A stretch of DNA of 64,000 bases from Gemmatales bacterium. GTDB taxonomy: Bacteria > Planctomycetota > Planctomycetia > Gemmatales > HRBIN36. The stretch lies in the NCBI GenBank assembly GCA_041640595.1, contig JBEPZY010000003.1, positions 572,342-636,341 on the forward strand. The letters are read 5' to 3'. Below, piece by piece: positions 31,729-54,384 of the stretch. Below the pieces are notes generated by a model that had not been told where the DNA came from, did no database searches, and was given only the letters and a program-made list of their open reading frames with translations. Position numbers and translations under genes: made by a program. Numbering within the stretch: position 1 is the first letter of the stretch; each line of letters begins with the position of its first letter.

Positions 31729-31911
31729 CTACTGGGCGTTCTGGATGGTGTCGCTGACCAGCTGGAATTTGCCCTTAGCACTCTGGCCGAGGCTGGTAAT
31801 GGCCGCGATGCAGACCACAATGATCAGGGCCAGCATCACCGCGTACTCGACGGCGGTCGGGCCATCTTCGCTTTGCACGAAGCGTTTCACCGCATGCAGC
31901 ACAGACCTCAT
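31729..31911 (-). CDS. flp: Flp type IVb pilin
   Basis: 60 aa with EDG/PTAVEYAVMLALI Flp motif. GGAGG RBS. Confidence 0.92.
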   Translation of the reverse strand: MRSVLHAVKRFVQSEDGPTAVEYAVMLALIIVVCIAAITSLGQSAKGKFQLVSDTIQNAQ

Positions 31912-31982: not shown

Positions 31983-32198
31983 TCACGGTGAAGGAGAAGG
32001 CGAGGGAGCGGGAGACGGCGGACCAAATCCGCCTTCGCTAATCACTCGCTGGAATCCCGAAAGAGTGGGATTGCCGATACTGGCAATGGCACTGAAGCAG
32101 ACCAGAATGATGAGCGCCAGCAGAATGGCGTACTCGATACTGGTTGTCCCATCTTCAGTTGACCGCCACTTCCGTAAGCAGCGGACGAGTCGCGCCAT
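31983..32198 (-). CDS. Second Flp-family pilin with Pro/Ser tail
   Basis: EDG/TTSIEYAILLALI motif. Ends GPPSPAPSPSPSP. Confidence 0.85.
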   Translation of the reverse strand: MARLVRCLRKWRSTEDGTTSIEYAILLALIILVCFSAIASIGNPTLSGFQRVISEGGFGPPSPAPSPSPSP

Positions 32199-34438: not shown

Positions 34439-35011
34439 CAGCAGCGGCTGACATAAACAAGCCATGCAAACACCAACGCAACTCCAGAAACGAACCGCCA
34501 CCTGCAACAACTACCGCACGCCCAACCAAGAGCGGCTGGCGTGGACCAGCCGTGGGACGCACGTGTTCCACTCGGAGAAAAACGTCCGCGACTGCGGGTA
34601 CGTTTGCGAACCACCGCGGGCTGACGCCCGCTGCTCTTGCACGGCCGTCACGTGGTCGCGTAAAGTGCACGATTTTCGCCGCGCAGCGTTGGTTTCACCA
34701 AACCACGGCGGGCTGACGCCCGCCGCTCTTGGTCGAACGTGCGCTCGTGCACCGCAAAATCGTCGTTCTTCCGGTGGATGGCCGTTGTACCAGCGCCAAG
34801 AGCGGGGGGCGTAAGCCCCCCGTGGGAAAAGTATCGCTCTCGTCGGCGAGAATCGCCCATCTGCAACGGCGTCTGCACGTGCGACCAAGAGCGGGGGCGT
34901 AAGCTCCCCGTGGAGTGCATTCGGCGTGCGAACTCGCAATGCGGAAATGCAGCGCATTACACTTGCCGACGCGGTTTGTCACCTACGGCGGGCTGACGCC
35001 CGCCGCTCTTG
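34439..35011. repeat. Short REP/BIME-like palindrome cluster (6 clear plus 1 degenerate ~29-bp units)
   Basis: Units at about 34527, 34611, 34703, 34797, 34886 and 34983 match CCACGGnnGGCTnACGCCnnCCGCTCYTG in either orientation. Degenerate copy at about 34439. Lies between convergent genes. Confidence 0.85.
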
Positions 35012-35018
35012 GAAGGCA

Positions 35019-37355
35019 TTACCAGTAGCGGGCCAGCAAATCACCCACCAATCCCACCAGCCTAGCCACGGTGAGCACCAGCATCGTGGCCGTCCAGCCA
35101 ACAGTAAGGATTTGCACCAGCCAATCACTCACACGCTCCCACCAATGGCGGTTGAAAAGCTCCCCCAGCCCGGTCTGGCCAGTGATCGGTGTGAGCGTTT
35201 CCGCGGTCGCAACTTCTCCGGCAGAGCTGGCCCGCATACGGACAGATTCGGGAGGACTATCAGCGTCACTCCGGTGTTTCGCCTCATGCTCAGGAAGCTC
35301 GGCAGTCAGTTTTGTTCGCGGCGAAGCGTATCGGATTGTCAACGGCAACCAGACCCACGCCAGTAAACACGGAAATAAATACCGCACCTGCATGCCGTAA
35401 ATGAAGGGATACCGGGGCGGCGTAACCGCCAGGTACATGGTCAGCGCGGTCAGCACCCACGTGCCAGCAAACAGCAGCAAACCGATAACCATGACCACGA
35501 CCAGTTGCAGCATCGCTTGCCGGTTCAGCCAGCTTGGGGCAAGCAAGAATGCCCGCAGCAGATCCACGGTTATCGCCGTAGCGACCAGTCCCCGCAACAC
35601 GCCCAGATGATACGGGTGGAAATAGGTATCCACCCAACCGAGCGGCATGCACCATCTGTCGAAATGCAGGGGAATGTCCAGGGCTGTGGCTAGCGGCTGC
35701 TGCAGAAAATAACGCCAGCCGCCTTCCTGAATCAGAAACTCCAGCTGCTGGCGAAACTGGTCGGCCACGGGCAGTTCGTGCATCGCCCGGTAGGCCCGCC
35801 AGATTACCAGCACCAATAGTCCGGTCAAAACCAGCACAACCAATCCACCAATGCTCAGCACCAACTCCGGTCGCCAGCGCCGCCAGAAAGTCGCCCACAG
35901 CGGCAGCAAAAACAGACTCACGTAGATGGGCGGTTTCGCCAGAAAGGCCAGCAGAGCCATCAGCCACAACGCTGCATAGCAGGCCAGCCAGTTTCGGCCA
36001 TTTGCCGCTCCTTCATCCTGCCGACGCAGGGCCAGAAAAGTTAGTCCTGCCGACATGGCCGCCAGGTTGGCCAGCGTATCCGTACTGATGACCGTGCATT
36101 GCTGCTGCACATACGGAATCGAGAAAACGGCGAGCACGAAAGCCGGCAAATGTTCCCGACGCCAGAACCAGTACAGCAACGCCAAGATAATCAGCACCGG
36201 CAACAACCGGCACAAATAGTAAAAGACCAGCGCCTCGTTCACCGTCTCCACACGCGGGAAGCACCACGCTACCACCGCCACCATCGGGTAGGAGTGATAC
36301 CAGGCGTAATTGACAAATTTCCGCTCGGTGATGGGCGTAATGTCCGCTCCCGTGGCACGGAACAGCGTCGGGGAAACTGCAGTTTCTGCCCGCCAGCGAA
36401 CGCGATCAAAGCCGGTGATTTCCGGAAGGTTATACAGCAGCTTTTCCTCCACAGCATGACGCCGATAACGAAGCAATGCGTCGCGCCAGTGGTCCTGCTC
36501 ATCCGGGCCCTGAAACGGTGGTAGCCCGAAAACGGTAATGAGGAAACTGGCAGCGACAACCACCAGCCCGAATCCTTCCAGCATTTTCGTATGGATCACT
36601 CCGGGCCACAGCAGCATCGCCGCCAGTCCCGCACAGGTACAAGCCAGAATCAGCCCGGTCAGTCGCCAGGCACGCTGTTGCCACGCAGAAGCCGTCCACT
36701 TACCAGCATCGCCGGTGACCACTGCCTGCCAGCCGCCTATTCGCAACCGACAGAACTTCGGCAAGGCGATCCGCACCTTCCTGGCCGGTTCTGGAAACCG
36801 CCAGATCACTCGCAGACCATCCTGCCACGTTTCCACTTCGCCACGCATCCGGTGCACATTAAGGAACGCATCCAGACTCAAACAGAAGGCTTCCTGATCC
36901 GCATCGCTCACCGTCACCGGCACCCAGGCGAGTTTCCATTCCGGTACACAGGTACTGCCCGGTTCCAGATACAATCGCAACTCTAGCATACCCCCAGCTA
37001 CGGGACCAAACTCGAAGCTGCCGGCAGACTCTACGGTGCTGAGAACACGCTCGAAATCCTGGACGCCAACGAAACGCCCCAGCGGAGCCTCCAACGGCGA
37101 CCATTCCTTCAGGTAAAGAGCCAGACTATTCGACCCATCCGTGCCACGAGCCGTCGCGCTTGCATCCCCGGCGAAACGCTCGTGCACCCTCGGCACAATC
37201 AGCCCCAGAACCAATACAGCTGCAGCGGCAAGCACACGTGCTCGCCTGACCTGAATCCCAGTCATCCCGCAATCGCTCGTCGTCATTGCTTCGCCCACTT
37301 GCATACCCATACTATACCCCAACACCAGCCTGGCTAACCCTCTGACACTCAGCAT
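35019..37355 (-). CDS. Large polytopic membrane protein, DUF2142/GT-C glycosyltransferase-like (start uncertain)
   Basis: More than 10 TM segments, PPFQGPDEQDHW loop motif, LGWVD and GMQVRYLFP. Confidence 0.65.
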   Translation of the reverse strand: MLSVRGLARLVLGYSMGMQVGEAMTTSDCGMTGIQVRRARVLAAAAVLVLGLIVPRVHERFAGDASATARGTDGSNSLALYLKEWSPLEAPLGRFVGVQDFERVLSTVESAGSFEFGPVAGGMLELRLYLEPGSTCVPEWKLAWVPVTVSDADQEAFCLSLDAFLNVHRMRGEVETWQDGLRVIWRFPEPARKVRIALPKFCRLRIGGWQAVVTGDAGKWTASAWQQRAWRLTGLILACTCAGLAAMLLWPGVIHTKMLEGFGLVVVAASFLITVFGLPPFQGPDEQDHWRDALLRYRRHAVEEKLLYNLPEITGFDRVRWRAETAVSPTLFRATGADITPITERKFVNYAWYHSYPMVAVVAWCFPRVETVNEALVFYYLCRLLPVLIILALLYWFWRREHLPAFVLAVFSIPYVQQQCTVISTDTLANLAAMSAGLTFLALRRQDEGAANGRNWLACYAALWLMALLAFLAKPPIYVSLFLLPLWATFWRRWRPELVLSIGGLVVLVLTGLLVLVIWRAYRAMHELPVADQFRQQLEFLIQEGGWRYFLQQPLATALDIPLHFDRWCMPLGWVDTYFHPYHLGVLRGLVATAITVDLLRAFLLAPSWLNRQAMLQLVVVMVIGLLLFAGTWVLTALTMYLAVTPPRYPFIYGMQVRYLFPCLLAWVWLPLTIRYASPRTKLTAELPEHEAKHRSDADSPPESVRMRASSAGEVATAETLTPITGQTGLGELFNRHWWERVSDWLVQILTVGWTATMLVLTVARLVGLVGDLLARYW

Positions 37356-37649
37356 TCTGTTTCATTCATTGCTTATCCATACGCGTGCCCTGCCCACCCA
37401 TACGGGCGGTACTCGTCTATCTGGCAGCCGGCATTTTGACTCATTGCTTACCCATACTGTACCCCGATACCAACCCCTAGCCAGGAGGCCCAACCCCATC
37501 CACAATCTGCCCAACGAACACTTGCACGTCTCCAACCGCGCTTATTACCAGCCAGTTCCAGGCCAACACGCACAGCTTTAAACTGCATCAGCGGTTGACC
37601 GTTATCATGCGGTTTAGTCGCATTCAACAGCCGTTACCTTTGACCTATT

Positions 37650-38659: not shown

Positions 38660-39577
38660 TCAGCGGTCGGTGAAAGGGATGAATTTGGCGCGATCGCGGA
38701 CGAGCGGGTGTTCGTCTGCGTGTAACTGCTTGACAAGTTCCGGCGTCCGCAGGAAGGGATATTTCAATAGCACATGCACCACATACCGCCGCGAATACCA
38801 CGCCCCATCGTTAGCCAGCCGTTGCAAGTGATCCCGAGTCAGCTTGATCTCAGCAAACTGCCTATGTCCACGCTGCATTCGCCACGCTGTCGTCTCAACC
38901 AGGTGGTTGGTCAATTCGACTTCCTGTAACGTGAAACGGGTTGAACAGGAATTATATACCGCCCATTCATGTCTCCTAAATTCTTCCCAGGCTTCGCATG
39001 GGAGTTCCTCAAACAGGTATTCGATGAGCTCTCTTGGCACATCTTTTTTGTACTCCTGCAAAACCTGACCGTAGGTTCTTCTTTTCCACTCCTTCGGAAC
39101 ATCTAGCTGATAAGGGCATTCAGCAACACTATCTACAAGGCGAAGCAGATAGTGAGCCGTGATTGCCACAGACCTTCTCTCGTCCGGCTCCTCCGGGTCT
39201 CTCCACTTTTCCAGACTCCCATCAGGATAGCATGACAGATACTTCACCAGCTCGCTCCGCGCGTCGTCGTGATGGCCTAAAAGGAGCAAATGAACACCTT
39301 TGGCCTGCAGTTCTATAAAGGGAACCTTGTCGTGTGTTAGTAGGACCAGAACAGCCTGGATAAACTCCGCAGGACTGTCCAGGTAGACCTCGTTCAGAGT
39401 CCGAACGGGCACAGTGTCCTTCCCTGACATGACTTTATATGACTTTGTCTTCCGAACTTGTTCAACATTAAGTTTTGGCCGGTCTTGAGCCGAAGCTATG
39501 AGGAACCAGCCTAAACTCAACGAGCCTACGAACGCAAGCAGGAAATGCGGGAAATTTAGATGTGGGCCCCTGCACAT
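38660..39577 (-). CDS. Secreted hypothetical protein with HEAT-like C-terminus; candidate immunity protein
   Basis: AGGAGG RBS, signal peptide ending ASA-Q, and LHADEHPLVRDRA HEAT-like end. Starts 31 nt after the upstream hydrolase module. Confidence 0.7.
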   Translation of the reverse strand: MCRGPHLNFPHFLLAFVGSLSLGWFLIASAQDRPKLNVEQVRKTKSYKVMSGKDTVPVRTLNEVYLDSPAEFIQAVLVLLTHDKVPFIELQAKGVHLLLLGHHDDARSELVKYLSCYPDGSLEKWRDPEEPDERRSVAITAHYLLRLVDSVAECPYQLDVPKEWKRRTYGQVLQEYKKDVPRELIEYLFEELPCEAWEEFRRHEWAVYNSCSTRFTLQEVELTNHLVETTAWRMQRGHRQFAEIKLTRDHLQRLANDGAWYSRRYVVHVLLKYPFLRTPELVKQLHADEHPLVRDRAKFIPFTDR

Positions 39578-39608: not shown

Positions 39609-41600
39609 CTAGCGCATATTCACACGCCCTAGAAAGCGGTTCCGAAGCTCCTCCTGAACAAATTGATCATCATCAATCGCTCTGTGGTCTAATTGTTGGC
39701 CAGGATTGATCTGCGGGGCGTTTACATTGCGATCGACATTGCTACCGGGAACCGGCGCTCCTTGGGGTCCCCCCAATTGCTGATAGTAATTGGCATGAAA
39801 CTGAGTCCGCCGAGGCAGATTGGTTTCCGCTCTCGGAGGAACGGACCCATGTTCGATGGCATCCACATAAGCAGTAAACGGAACCACGAAGTGGCGCTGG
39901 AATGGATTTTGTGGGTTGGCGAGGTCCTGGTCAATCCGTGCCAGAAGGTTGCGGGTCGCTCCGCCGCCGTAACTGAAACCCATCACTACTAAATTGTTGA
40001 TATTGTGGCGATTTACCGCGCGTAGCGCCCAGTCATAAGCCAGCCCTGTACCGGCTTGGTCCCCTCCACGCTGCTCGTTTTCACCAAACAGGTGCACGTC
40101 ATAGCCATCCTCAGCATATAGCCGCTGCCTGGCAAAATTGAACAAACCGTTCCCTCTCTGATTCGTCATCGGATCAGGATTTTGTGTGAAGCCGCCAATT
40201 ACGATGACCGTGGTTTGGAAGCGATAGAACGTCAGGCTGTCGGACTGGCCCACCACCTGTCCGTTGGCATTCCGTGCCTCGAAAGTCAACACCGCATTCA
40301 CCGGCTGCTGCTGATCCCCTATCCATTCCACCCACAAGGTCGCCGTTCCCCCTTGCCCAAAATTGACCTTCACCTCATTAAGATTATTACCAAACAAACC
40401 GTTCCCGGGTTTCGCCGGCCCCGTCCAGACCTGCAGCACACCGGCACTCCGTTTCAAGTAATAGTCGATTCCCGCCGGTGGTTGTTGCACGCCAAACTGC
40501 AAGTCTATCCGCACCAGGTCATCCTCACCCGCCACCCCGTTGTTGTCGCGATAATCAGCCATCCCATCATTATCATCGTCATCGCCATTGAAGCGAATCC
40601 CCACGCCGGGATTATCCTCTTGATTGGCCGGTACCGGCGGCACCTGCTGCTCCTGCCGAGCTGCGTTCGGTGGCATAAACCGGTTGTACGGCCGATAGCC
40701 TGTCAGGTCTAATACTAAATTCTGAGGTGGCGGTTGCTGATTCGGCTTTACTTGCACCTGTACCTGAGCCACCGCAGAAGTGGCTCTACCATCGCTAACC
40801 TGGTAATAGAATTCATCCTCACCAGTGTATCCCGCTGCTGGAGTATAGACGAGCAATCCACCCAGGTCAACCATCTCACCATGCCGCGGCCCAGTTATGA
40901 TTGTGTAGCTCAGAAGATCACCATCCGGATCATACGCTGCCCAGGCATACTCTGAACCGAGTGCCGGTTCAGCCATGATGCTCAGACTAAACATCACGAG
41001 GGTATCCTCAACCGTCTCGATAGACATATCTACCGCCACCGGGGCCCGATTCGAAATCTCGATGGTGACGCTCGCTATTTCACTAGCCGAGATACCATCC
41101 GACCAGTAATAAGTAAAGGTTTCCGCACCGACAAATCCTTCCGGCGGGATATAAGAGAAAGTTCCGTCTAATCCTAAGTACACCGAGCCCACGCCTGGTT
41201 CCGAATTCAAGAACGCATAAATCGGATCACCATCCGGATCATAACCATCCAGTTGGCCACTGACCAGCTGATTCCGATAAGTATGAACAACTGCTTGGTA
41301 AGCCACCGGTGCGCTGTTATACACATCTATCGAAACCGTCACCGTGTTGCCGGTGGTCAAGCCGTCCGACCAGGTGTAGGTGGAACTGTCGGCGCCGATG
41401 TAGTTCGTGTTCGGTGTGTACGTAAAGGTGCCGTCGGGATGGAATGTTAGTTTACCGTTGGTCGGGCCCGTTGGTGGGGCCGGAGGCTGATTACGCCGAG
41501 AAAACGCCGGGGCTTGAAAGCATTGGCACGGTAATAGCGTCGCCGTCGGGATCGTTGCCGTATACGGAGACGCTCAGTCCGTGATTAGTGGAGGCACAAA
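39609..41600 (-). pseudogene. Headless Ig-like (Big_9/cadherin-like) repeat protein with C-terminal GxSxG alpha/beta hydrolase; 5' part disrupted (continuous ORF 39609-41360)
   Basis: Repeats YDPDGD...DGTFSY...F.Y..SDG, an acidic NGDDDDNDG...GEDDL motif and VMGFSYGGG. Homologous coding extends upstream through a TAA (41491-41493) and a 13-nt duplication frameshift. Confidence 0.7.
41488..41562. repeat. 75-bp direct repeat, copy B (copy A at 44269-44343)
   Basis: 70 of 75 positions are identical to copy A by manual alignment. Confidence 0.92.
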
Positions 41601-41720
41601 AAATGGGCTAAGGGAGTTAACTCTGCTTGGCCGATGCCGCAAAAAAAATCTGAGTGTTTCCTTGCCTTCTCAGTCCTGAGAGCGAATTGTTTATATAGTT
41701 GTTCGCTATAAGCGCGGTAA

Positions 41721-42542
41721 TCATTCAAGACCAATTAGCTTCAACTGCGACAGTTTCCAGGGCAGGTCTTTGGAGGCGGGATCCTCGGCCTTGCCAGAGA
41801 CAAATTCTATATCACAGGGACCTATTTGGCATTGAATGATCCATTTTTCGGATTTCGCATCCCAACGCAGGTCGGTAAGTTTGATTCCCCGTCTTCCGAG
41901 CAGCTGTTGGGATTCCCAATCCGCAAGACCCACGAATAGAGAGAGTTTTTCCCCGAGCGTAATTTGTATCGAGCCTTCAACGCTGATCGGCAAGCTGTGC
42001 TGCCAGATGCTAGAAAAATACCTATGATGAACGATACTTTCCAACTGCCGTTCCTCCGGTTTTGCAGGCAACTTTGGTGGTGCGTCCGGGTCCCTAAGTG
42101 TTTTGCTCAGATCAAGCTGGTAAAACGCAATCTCACTCGGTCCGGCGATGAACGCCAGGCCTATACGGTCGCGGTCTCGGGCTACCACTCGGAAGTCGCG
42201 GGGTATATATTTTGGCTTAGTAAATTGGGTGTCGCGATAATTTTCAATATAGTTAACTTTCCAGACCTCTCTGCGTTCCAATTCGCTACTAACCACTCCA
42301 CGCAGCACCACCCAAATCGCCTTGTAGGTTGTCCCCGGCGGGGCACCGTAATCATACTCCATTTTAACCTCTTCCATGTAAATCTCGAACTTGCGATTAT
42401 CAGGCAATGGAAACGTAGCCACAGGCTTATTCGGAGAGCTACTCACCGGCTTACCCTCATTCGGCAAGAGCCTAGTCGTGCAGGCGAGGAAGAAAATTAA
42501 TCCTGACGCGAATGCTGCTAATTGTTTTACACCTCTCAGCAT
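41721..42542 (-). CDS. Hypothetical lipoprotein; candidate immunity protein
   Basis: TAAGGAGG RBS before ATG at 42542 and lipobox-like FFLAC. Follows the transglutaminase-like module. Confidence 0.72.
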   Translation of the reverse strand: MLRGVKQLAAFASGLIFFLACTTRLLPNEGKPVSSSPNKPVATFPLPDNRKFEIYMEEVKMEYDYGAPPGTTYKAIWVVLRGVVSSELERREVWKVNYIENYRDTQFTKPKYIPRDFRVVARDRDRIGLAFIAGPSEIAFYQLDLSKTLRDPDAPPKLPAKPEERQLESIVHHRYFSSIWQHSLPISVEGSIQITLGEKLSLFVGLADWESQQLLGRRGIKLTDLRWDAKSEKWIIQCQIGPCDIEFVSGKAEDPASKDLPWKLSQLKLIGLE

Positions 42543-42612
42543 GGTTGACCTCCTTAGCGGTTCGTTATGGTTGCAGTTGAGTGATGAGGCGTTCTGCAAC
42601 TGCAGCTAGGAA

Positions 42613-44244
42613 TCACAACTCCACAAATCTTGTTTCTATCCTTTTAGGGTCGTTCTTCTTGTAAAAGGTGCCGCCAAACCTGTCCTGTCCGAATCCATCT
42701 AGAGAAGCGTTTTCCCAGGCGTCTTGCGTCCTAAATGGGCCAGTGCCATAAGACGGATCGTAGTATTGACCTTTAAGACGCACAATATAATGGTTGTAAA
42801 AATTGCTAGGGGGATCATCGTTTCCTTGTCCAGGAACGCCTCTCAGTTCCGTTACGTCAGTAGAGCGATAAATGTATGGTTTCGTCGCAGGCGAGGTCGG
42901 TTTGCCAAAGCGCCAGTTCTTTACTAGTATCCGAGTCTCGGCAGGCAGTCCGTCAGGCGTCATTGGACGGCCAGCAGCATTGACTGGTTCGTCTATGTTG
43001 AATACATGCACTCGTTTCACGTCGGTTATACCTTGGGCGAGCATGATATCCCTCAAAAAGTACGCCCAGGAGCCGCACTGCCCGTTTGCGTGGGCTAAAA
43101 GTTGCTGTGTGTTGACCGCAGTGGCCCTGCCGCCATCCCAGTACCTCAATTGAGTGCCATCCACCCGGCGGACTTCCCGATCAGTGAAATCACTCCAAAT
43201 TGCTGAGATAACATCCGATTCGTTTGCTTTGCCGTCAGCGTTCTTCGAGCCCAGATGCACCAGGGTATGGTATAAGTTCACCCCTGGTTTGAGGGCAGGG
43301 TCGGCAAAAGTAAGGTACAAAGGATTTTGCGTGGTCCCGGCCTTCGTCCAGGTTGAGTTGGCGCGCTGGCTGTCGGAGGTGGCTTGCCAGTCCAGCCTGA
43401 AGAGATTTGCACCAACGTAAGCTTGCACCACATTCGGAAATGCCACCGGCGACTCCGTCTCGTCAAGCACGAGTTCAGTCGGGTTCGTCGGGTCCACGCG
43501 CACAGCCTTCGGCCCTACGTGAATCTGGAATCCCGTCGCAGGGTCCGCCGGCCCCGTCGCCATCACATAAATCGGGCCGCCACCCCACGCAGTATCTAAG
43601 ACGAACCGGGCACTCACTTTTAACGTTGCACCCCGGGTGTAAGCGTATGGCCAGCTATGCTCACCCGCATCCTCCGCATCCCCGTCTAAGTTTGTGTCCA
43701 ACCAGTGTTCCGAACTATAGGCCACGTCGGGAGCTATTGCTCCAGTCGGGTCCAGCTCCGGGTCCCGGTACACGGTATGCCCGCCGCTGAACGTTACCGA
43801 CCGGCTACCAAGGATTTTAGCCGTGTGAACAACGACCGTTTGTGTCGCCTCGGCAACGCCATCACTAACGGTGTACGTGAACGAGTCGTCCCCAGTGTGG
43901 TCGGCAGCTGGATAATAAGCAAAATCACCGTTGGGATTCATCACCAGATGAGCACCGGATGGGAGTCGCATCCACTGCGGGAGTGGCTGATCGTCAATCT
44001 TGACCACGCGTAAGCTATCGCCATCGGCGTCCGTATCGTTCGCCAGGACGTTTCCCCAAACGGCACTCCCCGCCAGGACGTAATACTCGTCATTTACAGC
44101 CTCCGGAGCAGTGTTATGAACAGCAATCCAAGCCATAGCCAGGCCTAAAGCTATACCATCCGTAAACCCAAATACAAAAGCATCCGTGCCAGTATAACCA
44201 GCCGCCGGTGTATATATAAATCTGCCATCATCATTCAATACCAC
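42613..44244 (-). CDS. Ig-like repeats plus C-terminal transglutaminase/papain-like domain (in-frame continuation of 44272-45186)
   Basis: NVLANDTDADGD repeat and GQCGSWA...NHYIV...YYDPSYG (Cys-His-Asp). Separated from the upstream stop by exactly 27 nt in the same frame. Confidence 0.72.
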   Translation of the reverse strand: MVLNDDGRFIYTPAAGYTGTDAFVFGFTDGIALGLAMAWIAVHNTAPEAVNDEYYVLAGSAVWGNVLANDTDADGDSLRVVKIDDQPLPQWMRLPSGAHLVMNPNGDFAYYPAADHTGDDSFTYTVSDGVAEATQTVVVHTAKILGSRSVTFSGGHTVYRDPELDPTGAIAPDVAYSSEHWLDTNLDGDAEDAGEHSWPYAYTRGATLKVSARFVLDTAWGGGPIYVMATGPADPATGFQIHVGPKAVRVDPTNPTELVLDETESPVAFPNVVQAYVGANLFRLDWQATSDSQRANSTWTKAGTTQNPLYLTFADPALKPGVNLYHTLVHLGSKNADGKANESDVISAIWSDFTDREVRRVDGTQLRYWDGGRATAVNTQQLLAHANGQCGSWAYFLRDIMLAQGITDVKRVHVFNIDEPVNAAGRPMTPDGLPAETRILVKNWRFGKPTSPATKPYIYRSTDVTELRGVPGQGNDDPPSNFYNHYIVRLKGQYYDPSYGTGPFRTQDAWENASLDGFGQDRFGGTFYKKNDPKRIETRFVEL

Positions 44245-44268
44245 CGTGCCATTCGTCGGAGCGGAGAT

Positions 44269-44343
44269 TGATTACGCCCAGAAAACGCTGGGGCTTGAAA
44301 GCATTGGCACGGTGATAGCTTCGCCGTCGGGATCGTAGCCGTA
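44269..44343. repeat. 75-bp direct repeat, copy A (contains the in-frame TAA)
   Basis: TGATTACGCCCAGAAAACGCTGGGGCTTGAAAGCATTGGCACGGT... is shared with 41488-41562. Confidence 0.92.
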
Positions 44344-45186
44344 GAGCTGGCCGACCAACTCGCGGTCGTGCAGCACGCTGAAGCTGGCGTCGTAGGCATA
44401 CGGCGCGTTGTTCGTGATCAGGATGTTAACCATCGCGGTGTAGCTGTCTAAGTCGTCGCTAATCGTCAGGCTGAACGAGTCGGTACCAGTAAAGTTTGGC
44501 GGTGGGGTATAGCTAAATGTGCCGTCCGCCCATACGGTTAGCGAGCCACCCGACGGCAGGCTCATCGGCTCCCCGTAACTAATCGCCTGACCGTTGATGT
44601 GAGTAATGCGTATCGCGTCGCCGTCCGGATCATAAGCACCACTAAGTAAGTTGCCCATTAAGTCCCGATCGTGCAGGATACTAAACTCCTGGTCGCCTAA
44701 CTGCGGCATATTGTTGAACACATTGATAGTTACCCAGGCCGTGCTCTCAGATTCCCCGTCGCTGATCGTATAGCTAAAACTTACCTGCCCCTTATATCGC
44801 AGCGTCGGCGTAAAGGTGAAACTGCCATCCTGCTCGACGGTGAGATAACCGTAAATCAAGTCGCCATCCTGCAAGGTAATCTGCGTGCCGGGTGTATAGG
44901 TCTGACCGTTGATGCGGGTGATGCTTAGTGTGTTGGCGTCGGGATCGTAATCGTTCGACAGGAGGTTGGCGAACAGTGTGGTGTCGTGCAACAGGTCGAA
45001 CCAATCGTCCGCGGCGAAGGGCGAACTATTGCCTAAACCGTTGGGAGCATTGCGATCCTCTAACATTTCGACCCTCAACCGAACCTGACTCGGCGGACTT
45101 AGATGCCGATTGCGTTTGAGCCGACTCCAGAGTTCACACCACCAGGCGCGCAATCGCCCGTGTGTGTGTGTGCTCGTTCCAGGCAC
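44272..45186 (-). CDS. N-terminal part of an exported Ig-like repeat protein with planctomycete extracellular motif
   Basis: Basic N-terminus, then LRVEMLEDRNAP, then LLSNDYDPDA/GAYDPDGD repeats. Stops in the middle of a repeat. Confidence 0.75.
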   Translation of the reverse strand: MPGTSTHTHGRLRAWWCELWSRLKRNRHLSPPSQVRLRVEMLEDRNAPNGLGNSSPFAADDWFDLLHDTTLFANLLSNDYDPDANTLSITRINGQTYTPGTQITLQDGDLIYGYLTVEQDGSFTFTPTLRYKGQVSFSYTISDGESESTAWVTINVFNNMPQLGDQEFSILHDRDLMGNLLSGAYDPDGDAIRITHINGQAISYGEPMSLPSGGSLTVWADGTFSYTPPPNFTGTDSFSLTISDDLDSYTAMVNILITNNAPYAYDASFSVLHDRELVGQLYGYDPDGEAITVPMLSSPSVFWA

Positions 45187-45329
45187 ACACAGCGGTCAAC
45201 GAAGCTCATCATGGCTAGCCTCCTCTTGGGAACAGACCGAAGGGGAAATCTGCGTCGGGTCGCCTGATGCCCGCGTGCCCGACTCCCGATAGGCACCGAC
45301 CGAAGTGGAGACGGCCACCAACCGCAGCC

Positions 45330-45413
45330 CAAGCGACTGCAATCGCAGGTAAAGCAACCGCAATCGCAGCTCAAGCGACCGCAATCGCAGGTGAAGCGAC
45401 GGCAATCCAAGCT
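45330..45413. repeat. Four 21-bp tandem repeats
   Basis: CAAGCGACTGCAATCGCAGGT / AAAGCAACCGCAATCGCAGCT / CAAGCGACCGCAATCGCAGGT / GAAGCGACGGCAATCCAAGCT. Confidence 0.9.
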
Positions 45414-45609
45414 GAAGTTACCAAAAACCACGCCGCCCTCCGGAGCAAACGACAAAAATTTTTACTGCGGCGGTAATTTTCGGCAAGTTGCGGACTGTGC
45501 ATAGGTTACGGAGGCGGCGGACGGGCCCGATCCGGCAATTGTGCGAAACGCAGAAAGGGGACCCGACAAAGGGGCCCATAGCCAAGGCAAACTCTAATCC
45601 CGGGTCAGG

Positions 45610-45726
45610 GCGAGAAAGTGCTTTTCGACCGGTGCGGAATGTAAAGGGAGAAATACAGACCAACATGTCGAGCATTCATGGTCGCGAAAAAGTGTTATTC
45701 GGCCGGTGCGGAATGTAAAAGGAGAA
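45610..45726. repeat. Two 43-bp imperfect direct repeats separated by 31 bp
   Basis: 45610-45652 and 45684-45726, 5 mismatches, shared core CCGGTGCGGAATGTAAA. Confidence 0.88.
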
Positions 45727-45740
45727 CAGAGTCAGCGGGG

Positions 45741-52225: not shown

Positions 52226-52272
52226 ACACCGGCCCCGTTCATGCCAGTTGCACCGAACAAACACCGCGCAAC

Positions 52273-54361
52273 CAGGAGCGGCTGGCGTGAGCCAGCCGTG
52301 GTTCGAGAAACGCGTTTGCAGCGGTAACACCGCAATTGTCGCGCAGAGGCCACCAGTCGGTGGTCTGTGCACGGACACCGTTGCAACTGCGTTACTCACA
52401 CCCACGGCGGGCTGACGCCCGCCGCTCCTGCTGGTACGTTCGCGAGTCGGCGAACAGTGCTCGATTTTTGCGATAGCCCATTGTATCACCCGCCACGGCG
52501 GGCTGACGTCCGCCGCTCCTGGGAATGCGCGTTCGTGCATCGCACAAATCGTTTTTCCGCCGACAAACGTTCGCAACTCAACACAAGAGCGGGGGGCGTA
52601 AGCCCCCCGTGGTGCGGGAGCCGATTGTGCAGTGGCAAACGTAACCACTCCACGGAGATCGCTCGCCATTGCAGATGCGTTTTTCGATACCACGGCGGGC
52701 TGACGCCCGCCGCTCCTGGGAATGTGCGTTCGTGCATCGCACAAATCGTTTTTTTCCCCGACAAACGTTCGCACTGCACCAAGAGCGGGGGGCGTAAGCC
52801 CCCCGTGGGATACAAAACGCCGTTGCAAATCGCAACCGCTTTTCTGCGGCAATCTGCGCGCGGGCAATCAGGAGCGGCTGACGTGAGCCAGCCGTGGTTC
52901 GAGAAACGCGCTTGCAGCGGCAACACCGCAATTGTCGCGCAGAGGCGACCAGTCGGTGGTCTGTGCACGAACACCGTTGCAACTGCGTTACTCATACCCA
53001 CGGCGGGCTGACACCCGCCGCTCTTGCGAATGTGCGTTCGTGCATCGCACAAATCGTTTTTTCCCCGACAAACGTTCGCACTGCACCAAGAGCGGGGGGC
53101 GTAAGCCCCCCGTGGGATGTTCTCGGTATGCGAACTCGAAACGCGGAAATCCAACGCGTTGCCGTTGCCAACGTGGTTTCCGACCAGCGGCAGGCTGACG
53201 CCGGTCTCTGAACGAAAGCGCCCGCAATTGCAATAACGTTACTCATACCCACGGCGGGCTGACACCCGCCGCTCTTGTTGGTACGTTCGCGAGTCGGCGA
53301 ACAGTGCTCGATTTTTGCGATAGCCCATTGTATCACCCACCACGGCGGGCTGACGCCCGCCGCTCTTGGGAATGTGCGTTCGTGCATCGCACAAATCGTT
53401 TTTCCGCCGACAAACGTTCGCAACTCAACACAAGAGCGGGGGGCGTAAGCCCCCCGTGGGATGTTCTCGGTATGCGAACTCGAAACGCGGAAATCCAACG
53501 CGTTGCCGTTGCAACCGTGGTTTGCGACCAGCAGCAGGCTTACACCGGTCGCTGGACGAAATCGCCCGCAATTGCAACTGCGTTACTCATACCCACGGCG
53601 GGCTGACGCCCGCCGCTCCTGGGAATGCGCGTTCGTGCATCGCACAAATCGTTTTTTCGCCGACAAATGTTCGCCCTGCACCAAGAGCGGGGGGCGTAAG
53701 CCCCCCGTGGGAAACAAAACGCCGTTGTCAATCGCAACCGCTTTTCTGCAGCAATCCGCGCGCGGGCAACCAGGAGCGACTGGCGTGAGCCAGCCGTGGT
53801 TCGAGAAACGCGTTTGCAGCGGTAACACCGCAATTGTCGCGCAGAGGCCACCAGTCGGTGGTCTGTGCACGGACACCGTTGCAACTGCGTTACTCATACC
53901 CACGGCGGGCTGACGCCCGCCGCTCTTGCTGGTACGTTCGCGAGTCGGCGAACAGTGCTCGATTGTTGCGATAGCCCATTGTATCACCCGCCACGGCGGG
54001 CTGACGCCCGCCGCTCCTGGGAATGCGCGTTCGTGCATCGCACAAATCGTTTTTTCGCCGACAAACGTTCGCACTGCACCAAGAGCGGGGGGCGTAAGCC
54101 CCCCGTGGGATGTTCTCGGTATGCGAACTCGAAACGCGGAAATCCAACGCGTTGCCGTTGCCAACGTGGTTTCCGACCAGCAGCAGGCTGACGCCGGTCT
54201 CTGAACGAAAGCATCCGCAATTGCAACTGCGTTACTCATACCCACGGCGGGCTGACGCCCGCCGCTCTTGTTGGTACGTTCGCGAGTCGGCGAACAGTGC
54301 TCGATTTTTGCGATAGCCCATTGTATCACCCACCACGGCGGGCTGACGCCCGCCGCTCCTG
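52273..54361. repeat. Large REP/BIME-like mosaic array: 20 intact 29-bp palindromes (3 variants) plus 3 degenerate, with reused linkers
   Basis: R1 (+) CCACGGCGGGCTGACGCCCGCCGCTCYTG x11, R2 (-) CAAGAGCGGGGGGCGTAAGCCCCCCGTGG x6, R3 (-) CAGGAGCGGCTGGCGTGAGCCAGCCGTGG x3. Lies between convergent genes. Confidence 0.93.
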
Positions 54362-54384
54362 TTGGGCCGACCTTGATTCGCAGC

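Follow-up and report, generated by a model that had tools for sequence, protein, structure and literature searches.

A stop-bearing insert in a tip-swapping gene array of a hot-spring Gemmatales bacterium probably tags spare cassettes and was recombined into the head gene

In the Rhs arrays described in the available part of Koskiniemi et al. 2014 (PMC3967940), a full-length gene is followed by start-less orphan cassettes of tip and partner, an orphan tip is joined to the main gene by homologous recombination within a region that both share, and the same tip is found as an orphan in one strain and in the main gene of another. The polymorphic toxins of Zhang et al. 2012 (PMC3482391), as far as the accessible portion of that text goes, combine a constant 5' body with variable C-terminal enzyme domains, papain/transglutaminase-like and lipase-like among them, in a toxin-then-partner order and with the cassettes occurring as pairs. 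Effector displacement in Vibrio's type VI secretion system (T6SS) arrays proceeds by homology-facilitated illegitimate recombination, where new pairs of tip and partner come in upstream, leaving behind remnants whose 5' breakpoints vary (Kirchberger et al. 2017, PMC5361080). A locus alike in these respects was found in a Gemmatales bacterium (assembly GCA_041640595.1, contig JBEPZY010000003.1, positions 572,342 to 636,341); this stretch of 64,000 nucleotides (nt) is referred to as the window, its first letter is position 1, and the head, tip, partner and insert features described below lie on its minus strand. The head gene of the locus is stopped by a TAA next to a 33-nt insert, and a second copy of the insert lies in an orphan cassette. 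The insert is probably a decayed duplication that tags spare cassettes and that was recombined into the head, thereby breaking it, and not a switch or a recombination site.

Judged from its genes, the locus is a polymorphic-toxin-like array with a presumably secreted head, a stalk of Big_9 repeats, swappable tips and partner genes. By analogy, the tips and partners may act as toxins and immunity proteins, respectively, toxicity and immunity being deduced from the genes. Unlike in the Rhs arrays, to go by the available part of PMC3967940, the shared region is a Big_9/tandem-95 immunoglobulin (Ig)-like repeat instead of the Rhs core, and the main gene has captured a decayed leader and is broken. 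Unlike in the Vibrio T6SS arrays (PMC5361080), whole tips are kept and not only immunity genes. No Gemmatales system with a Big_9 stalk was found in the accessible portion of PMC3482391, and the word "cadherin" is absent from the first 300,000 of its 357,715 characters; a literature search that left most subscription journals outside its reach returned no paper on this system or on the insert. With nine or more tips, this Big_9-based tip-swapping array of hot-spring Gemmatales adds a further case to a kind of array that is already known.

The segments 44269-44343 and 41488-41562, at a spacing of 2,781 nt, are identical at 70/75 positions (87% over 95 nt), and both translate to DPDG(E/D)AIT-VPMLSSP(S/G)VF(W/S)A followed by a TAA stop (44272-44274 in copy A, 41491-41493 in copy B). 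Alignment and translation agree on the stop-bearing direct repeat noticed in an earlier, sequence-only reading of the window. That reading had compared the copies with uninterrupted repeats of the same proteins, which are distant comparators; the proper ones are three empty repeats on contig C4, reading ITAQLVSGPTNG, and against these copy A (44278..44310, VPMLSSPSVFW) still has exactly 33 extra nt and stays in frame with tip 1. Its statement that both copies preserve the frame with about 33 extra nt holds for copy A only. Copy B (41497..41529) has 46 extra nt, that is, the 33 nt and a 13-nt duplication (41463..41475) that makes it frame-shifting, so that tip 2 lies in a different frame; it is preceded not by a head but by a mere ~35-40 nt of decayed leader, which follows partner gene 1.

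Copy A sits in the third Big_9 repeat of the head gene, and copy B in the first repeat, itself decayed, of the cassette that holds tip 2 as an orphan. The head gene (44272..45212) comprises an N-terminal leader and Big_9/tandem-95 repeats and ends, at codon 305, at the TAA, in whose place the native AQL motif has its Gln codon (CAA); the copy at 208.8 kb on C4 has CAA there. The tip 1 cassette (42613..44271) continues in frame beyond this stop and is thus cut off from the head, as the sequence-only reading had it. A metagenome locus (L026), 99.6% identical over 12 kb with 48 differences, carries both TAA copies; the feature is therefore real, and the assembly artefact that had been held out as a fallback is ruled out.

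Tips were seen to be exchanged between strains at this Big_9 repeat position, as anticipated. Among 453 proteins, 20 contain the head, and these sort by C-terminus into 10 groups; with one group truncated, nine different tips remain. Tip 2 (39609..41462) is an orphan here and head-joined in protein P0448, to the C-terminal part of which it is 96% identical over 583 residues and whose repeat is empty; a calpain-like tip is head-joined in P0005 and an orphan in locus L030. A second, headless array was located on C4 of the same genome at 199-239 kb (L001-L003). It comprises no fewer than six cassettes of tip and partner, which point in either direction; their tips include metallopeptidase-like (HExxH) ones and hydrolases, and short C-terminal hydrolase fragments are present as well. 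The named relatives are labelled Gemmatales, and the sequencing runs containing the DNA are mostly from hot springs.

Six copies of the insert occur in the genome, four of them on C4 at ~201.5, 208.8, 224.6 and 238.9 kb and in both orientations, so that the premise of only two copies, on which the fallback had been built, did not hold. An exhaustive scan of the genome for the 33-mer gave five matches at 24/33 or better, all known copies, against a background reaching 23/33; the sixth copy, at 201.5 kb on C4, carries a 1-nt gap. Five of the six copies lie at the 5' edges of cassettes. In an alignment of 12 junctions (these six and those of loci L024, L028 and L030-L033), the extra length was 32 nt in one, 33 nt in two, 45 nt in four and 46 nt in five junctions; TAA is present in six, five are open and in frame, and one is frameshifted without a stop. 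Protein alleles of other strains differ in their first four residues (VPIV, MPIV, APIV, VPML), which means that neither the ATG nor the stop is conserved.

A scan of the metagenome_contigs collection for the insert pattern returned 10 loci; one of these, L025, is unrelated and matched by chance, and two, L026 and L027, belong to a single contig. The collections genome_contigs and viral_contigs gave 0 matches each. A DNA search of 40 relatives matched two of three congeners, with two further weak matches, and none of the matches covers the insert. In two other species of the genus, the matching repeats are empty in 6/6 cases, although tip families are shared with the present genome. On the sequences compared, the insert is species-restricted within what was searched.

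The insert was found in 0/26 AQL-type repeats of 18 head proteins, in 0/14 non-first repeats and in 6/17 first repeats of headless proteins, the last count leaving out P0258 and P0417, which bear the insert and were missed by the pattern. The contrast between head and headless proteins gives a Fisher p = 0.008, which is overstated, the strains being kin; moreover, the head set stems from a search for long proteins, for which TAA-bearing heads are too short. Junctions with a common upstream partner but different tips diverge 86-156 nt downstream of the insert, implying that exchange need not happen at the insert itself. The cassette leaders begin from 26 to >300 nt upstream of the insert, as would be expected from displacement with variable breakpoints of the kind given in the available sections on Vibrio (PMC5361080).

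The sequence-only reading had proposed that recombination between copies A and B would delete tip 1 and its partner and join the head to tip 2. In all of the simulated A x B crossovers (95/95) the stop at codon 305 persists and tip 2 stays in the wrong frame, so the 2.8-kb deletion would not arm tip 2; the natural head-tip 2 fusion in P0448, with its empty repeat, indicates that such fusions form through an empty repeat. A skip of 2,781 nt was not among the 15 of 17 joints listed for the runs (contigs of 4/24 runs), where contigs drop rare variants and absence is not shown; the nearest skips, 2,841 and 2,852 nt, resemble empty repeats from elsewhere. The sequence downstream of copy A is shared with the open cassette at 208.8 kb on C4, from which it is most likely that the head acquired tip 1 together with the insert by a crossover upstream of the insert.

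The events are best accounted for as follows. One secreted head with a Big_9 stalk would be served by spare repeat-tip-partner cassettes, swapped onto it through recombination inside the Big_9 repeats, each 267 nt long. The insert would be a passenger of single origin, probably a local tandem duplication of the AQLVSGPT codons, arising in the untranslated first repeat of a spare cassette. Decay in the leaders would have continued (CAA to TAA, the 13-nt duplication, the 1-nt loss), while recombination and gene conversion may have spread the insert among cassette leaders. Crossovers downstream of the insert would give working head-tip genes without it, and a crossover upstream of it would have brought it into the only head of this strain, with tip 1 no longer presented. 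The alternative offered in the sequence-only reading, one inactivating event copied by duplication or gene conversion, is the part of that reading that fits best, in more copies than the two it assumed.

A decayed local duplication as the likely origin is suggested by the first 24 nt of the insert, which match the native codons after it at 13-15/24 positions in three empty repeats of the genome (shuffle p 0.0004-0.007), and by protein alleles such as APIVSSPS, which match AQLVSGPT at up to 4/8. Several points weigh against this account. With gapped alignment the duplication signal is weak (p 0.02-0.85 over 12 comparisons), against empty repeats of other species p ranges from 0.02 to 0.5, and the last 9 nt of the insert are not explained by duplication. 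The count of 0/26 in heads is blind to stop alleles and comes from related strains, and ends of homology are not mapped crossover points. Gene conversion inside the insert is weakly shown, as only 2/45 site pairs fail the four-gamete test. Finally, 5/6 Big_9-type cassette leaders of the genome contain the insert, with no fewer than five different genes upstream of them, a high incidence for a neutral passenger.

An unlikely but still considerable alternative is that the insert is a collapsed scar of off-target spacer integration by a clustered regularly interspaced short palindromic repeat (CRISPR) system, that is, a target duplication plus spacer of 66-67 or 73-74 nt shortened to 33 nt; it would differ in the origin of the insert only. 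Isolated two-copy repeats in the genome peak at periods of 65-68 and 72-76 nt, and these match repeat plus spacer of its two CRISPR arrays (30+36 and 37+37); two cas1 genes are present. Repeat-spacer-repeat scars with array-like periods, found here genome-wide and in cassettes, resemble those of off-target Cas1-Cas2 integration ("neo-CRISPR" loci), and a putative Cas1 mechanism would account for them. Such scars do occur in these cassettes: the C4 copy of tip 1 is broken by two stacked units with 147 extra nt (73+74; C4 208.5-208.7 kb, L001 18500-18700), single units of 37+37 and 38+35 lie in tip 1 of runs X2-X4 and X16 (at window positions 44105-44141 and 43982-44019), and a 69-nt unit directly precedes two insert copies. 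A decayed first copy followed by foreign letters is also the pattern to be expected. Unlike the "neo-CRISPR" loci, however, the insert lacks the period: its extra lengths of 32, 33, 45 and 46 nt stand against the required 66-67 or 73-74 nt, and 0/12 DNA alleles and 0/8 protein alleles have the full 66-74 nt. A secondary deletion would have to be assumed, and no spacerless class at 30, 33 or 36-37 nt was found genome-wide.

A fragment of a CRISPR repeat was tried as a source of the insert and rejected. The likeness to the 3' end of a CRISPR repeat that the sequence-only reading had remarked on comes to 10/12 for a 12-mer against the C1 repeat of the genome, which 2.7% of 300 random windows of the locus equal; at 16 and 20 nt, 57% and 31% of such windows reach the score of the insert. 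The match to the C1 repeat is 17/30 (~3% of controls) and that to the C8 repeat unremarkable; no array lies at the insert, and there is no Rfam match. A comparison of 577 spacers with the window locus, the C4 array and four loci gave partial matches of at most 22 nt.

Improbable, in our view, is that the insert is a selected OFF allele, where gene conversion from the leaders would turn the head off and conversion from empty repeats would turn it on, alongside an (AC)n/(GT)n tract in the 5' coding region of the head (45160..45171). The insert is common in leaders, and the third head repeat upstream of it is identical at 98/102 nt to an empty C4 repeat, so that exchange is feasible. The tract has four lengths among strains: six units here (out of frame), five in L026 (in frame), seven in runs X3 and X16 (in part) and, to judge from THTHTH, eight in P0174 (in frame). 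It is one of three AC/GT tracts of at least six units in the genome, and its length alleles change the reading frame of the head between strains. Phase variation is a candidate role for the tract, although slippage could also drift unchecked in a gene that the TAA has already stopped. The only head of this strain is doubly broken, by TAA at codon 305 and by the out-of-frame tract. Against selection for the OFF state, the stop is not conserved, 5/12 junctions being open, the OFF head is found only in the present genome and the near-identical L026, and sister species run the system without the insert; no within-population switching was seen in the contigs compared.

A combination of the two ideas is doubtful: misfires of the CRISPR integrase would scar effector cassettes, and one collapsed scar would have become a transferable OFF allele, switching with the (AC)n tract while the partners are kept. 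If it were true, errors of the CRISPR integrase would be linked to the control of bacterial conflict genes.

That the insert is a site-specific cassette-exchange site of a recombinase, as the sequence-only reading had entertained, is very unlikely and was largely refuted. A tyrosine-recombinase element does lie within the C4 array at 216-222 kb (recombinase 217.1-217.5 kb), and the related loci L032, L033 and L028 differ from C4 in the order and orientation in which its flanks are joined across repeats that bear the insert. However, intact heads, which would be the products of exchange, lack the site (0/26 repeats), its length varies between 32 and 46 nt, and it has no dyad and no significant folding. 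The suspected hairpin was likewise not borne out, with folding z-scores of 0.60, -0.04, 1.13 and 0.87 when each copy was folded on either strand. Contig C3 has no recombinase of this family (four matches genome-wide), and no insert-like repeat flanks the recombinase element. The rearrangements also fit homologous recombination in the shared repeat of 100-400 nt, and single assemblies can misjoin at repeats. Inversions of ~13 and ~30 kb between Big_9 repeats of opposite orientation would fit the orders in L032, L033 and L028 relative to C4.

A recoding or readthrough signal at the TAA that yields some head-tip 1 product is the least probable option. In its favour, the frame is maintained in copy A, and tip 1 is complete, catalytic residues included. 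However, stop and kept frame coincide in copy A alone (1/12 junctions), past the stop the frame is shifted in copy B and in four further TAA alleles, no ochre tRNA is present among 51, the region 3' of the TAA shows no structure (z -0.19), Rfam at E up to 5 gave three sub-threshold matches with none over the insert, and the AC tract likewise puts the head of this strain out of frame. A promoter and terminator scan found nothing on either insert copy.

The insert itself is most likely debris, yet a useful tag, since it tells for each tip exchange whether this took place on one side of a fixed point or on the other. It also illustrates that a spare leader can disrupt the main gene if an exchange runs in the wrong direction.

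The start of the head is placed at the ATG at 45212 (the alternative being 45209), as the homologues P0174 and P0058 begin with the same MMSF../MSGV..THTH leader. This leader contains RLRVEMLEDR, which we take to be a motif of the type seen in planctomycete secreted proteins and which is also present in four other long proteins of the genome; no Pfam or NCBIfam signal model matched the head. Export of the head presumably proceeds through this N-terminal planctomycete leader.

Tip 1 carries Big_9 repeats and a transglutaminase-like domain with conserved Cys, His and Asp. Its model (predicted local distance difference test, pLDDT, 91) has transglutaminases as best matches (Foldseek E 3e-6), with low template-modelling (TM) scores of 0.23-0.34; in the ESM Atlas, unnamed clusters matched at 0.95 and transglutaminase clusters only at 0.77. 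Tip 2 combines its Big_9 repeats with two domains, one Ig-like and the other an alpha/beta-hydrolase (lipase-like, GxSxG); the latter matches the alpha/beta-hydrolase fold with Z 14.1 and a root-mean-square deviation of 3.1 over 159 aligned residues; its profile against the sequences of solved structures gave E 0.13 or worse. From these models, the putative enzyme assignments extend to the fold class only. A partner gene lies 3' of each tip, moves with that tip and matches no family. Partner gene 1 (41721..42542) is immunity-like by position, and its N-terminus resembles a signal peptide by inspection; partner gene 2 (38660..39577), likewise immunity-like by position, belongs to a homologous family that follows hydrolase tips on C4 and in genome G002. 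Complex prediction for the tip 2 hydrolase with partner 2 gave a score of 0.02.

Several minor observations were made at the locus. The last residues of the head protein P0174 are also those of the broken C4 copy of tip 1. At 45610-45728 and 37360-37457 lie isolated two-copy repeats whose periods, 74 and 75 nt, are those of the scar geometry seen genome-wide. In run X3, the region 41384-43093 (end of tip 1, partner 1, copy B) has a contig depth ~3x that of flanking contigs, which may reflect extra copies or other strains, contig depth not being copy number. A 21-nt tandem repeat 5' of the head (45319-45423) differs in copy number between runs. The stretch 45252-45556 upstream of the head has a second copy, 86% identical, at 268543-268850 on contig C3, before a lone partner-like gene with a signal-peptide-like start; it looks as if a head-tip gene had been lost there.

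Elsewhere in the window, GC-rich palindromic repeats form clusters of alternating orientation at 34439-35024 and 52244-54380 and occur also in other parts of the genome; we take them to be REP/BIME-like (repetitive extragenic palindrome/bacterial interspersed mosaic element). Two similar short minus-strand stretches at 31786-31869 and 32073-32156 look by eye like tandem genes that we presume to be of the Flp pilin type.

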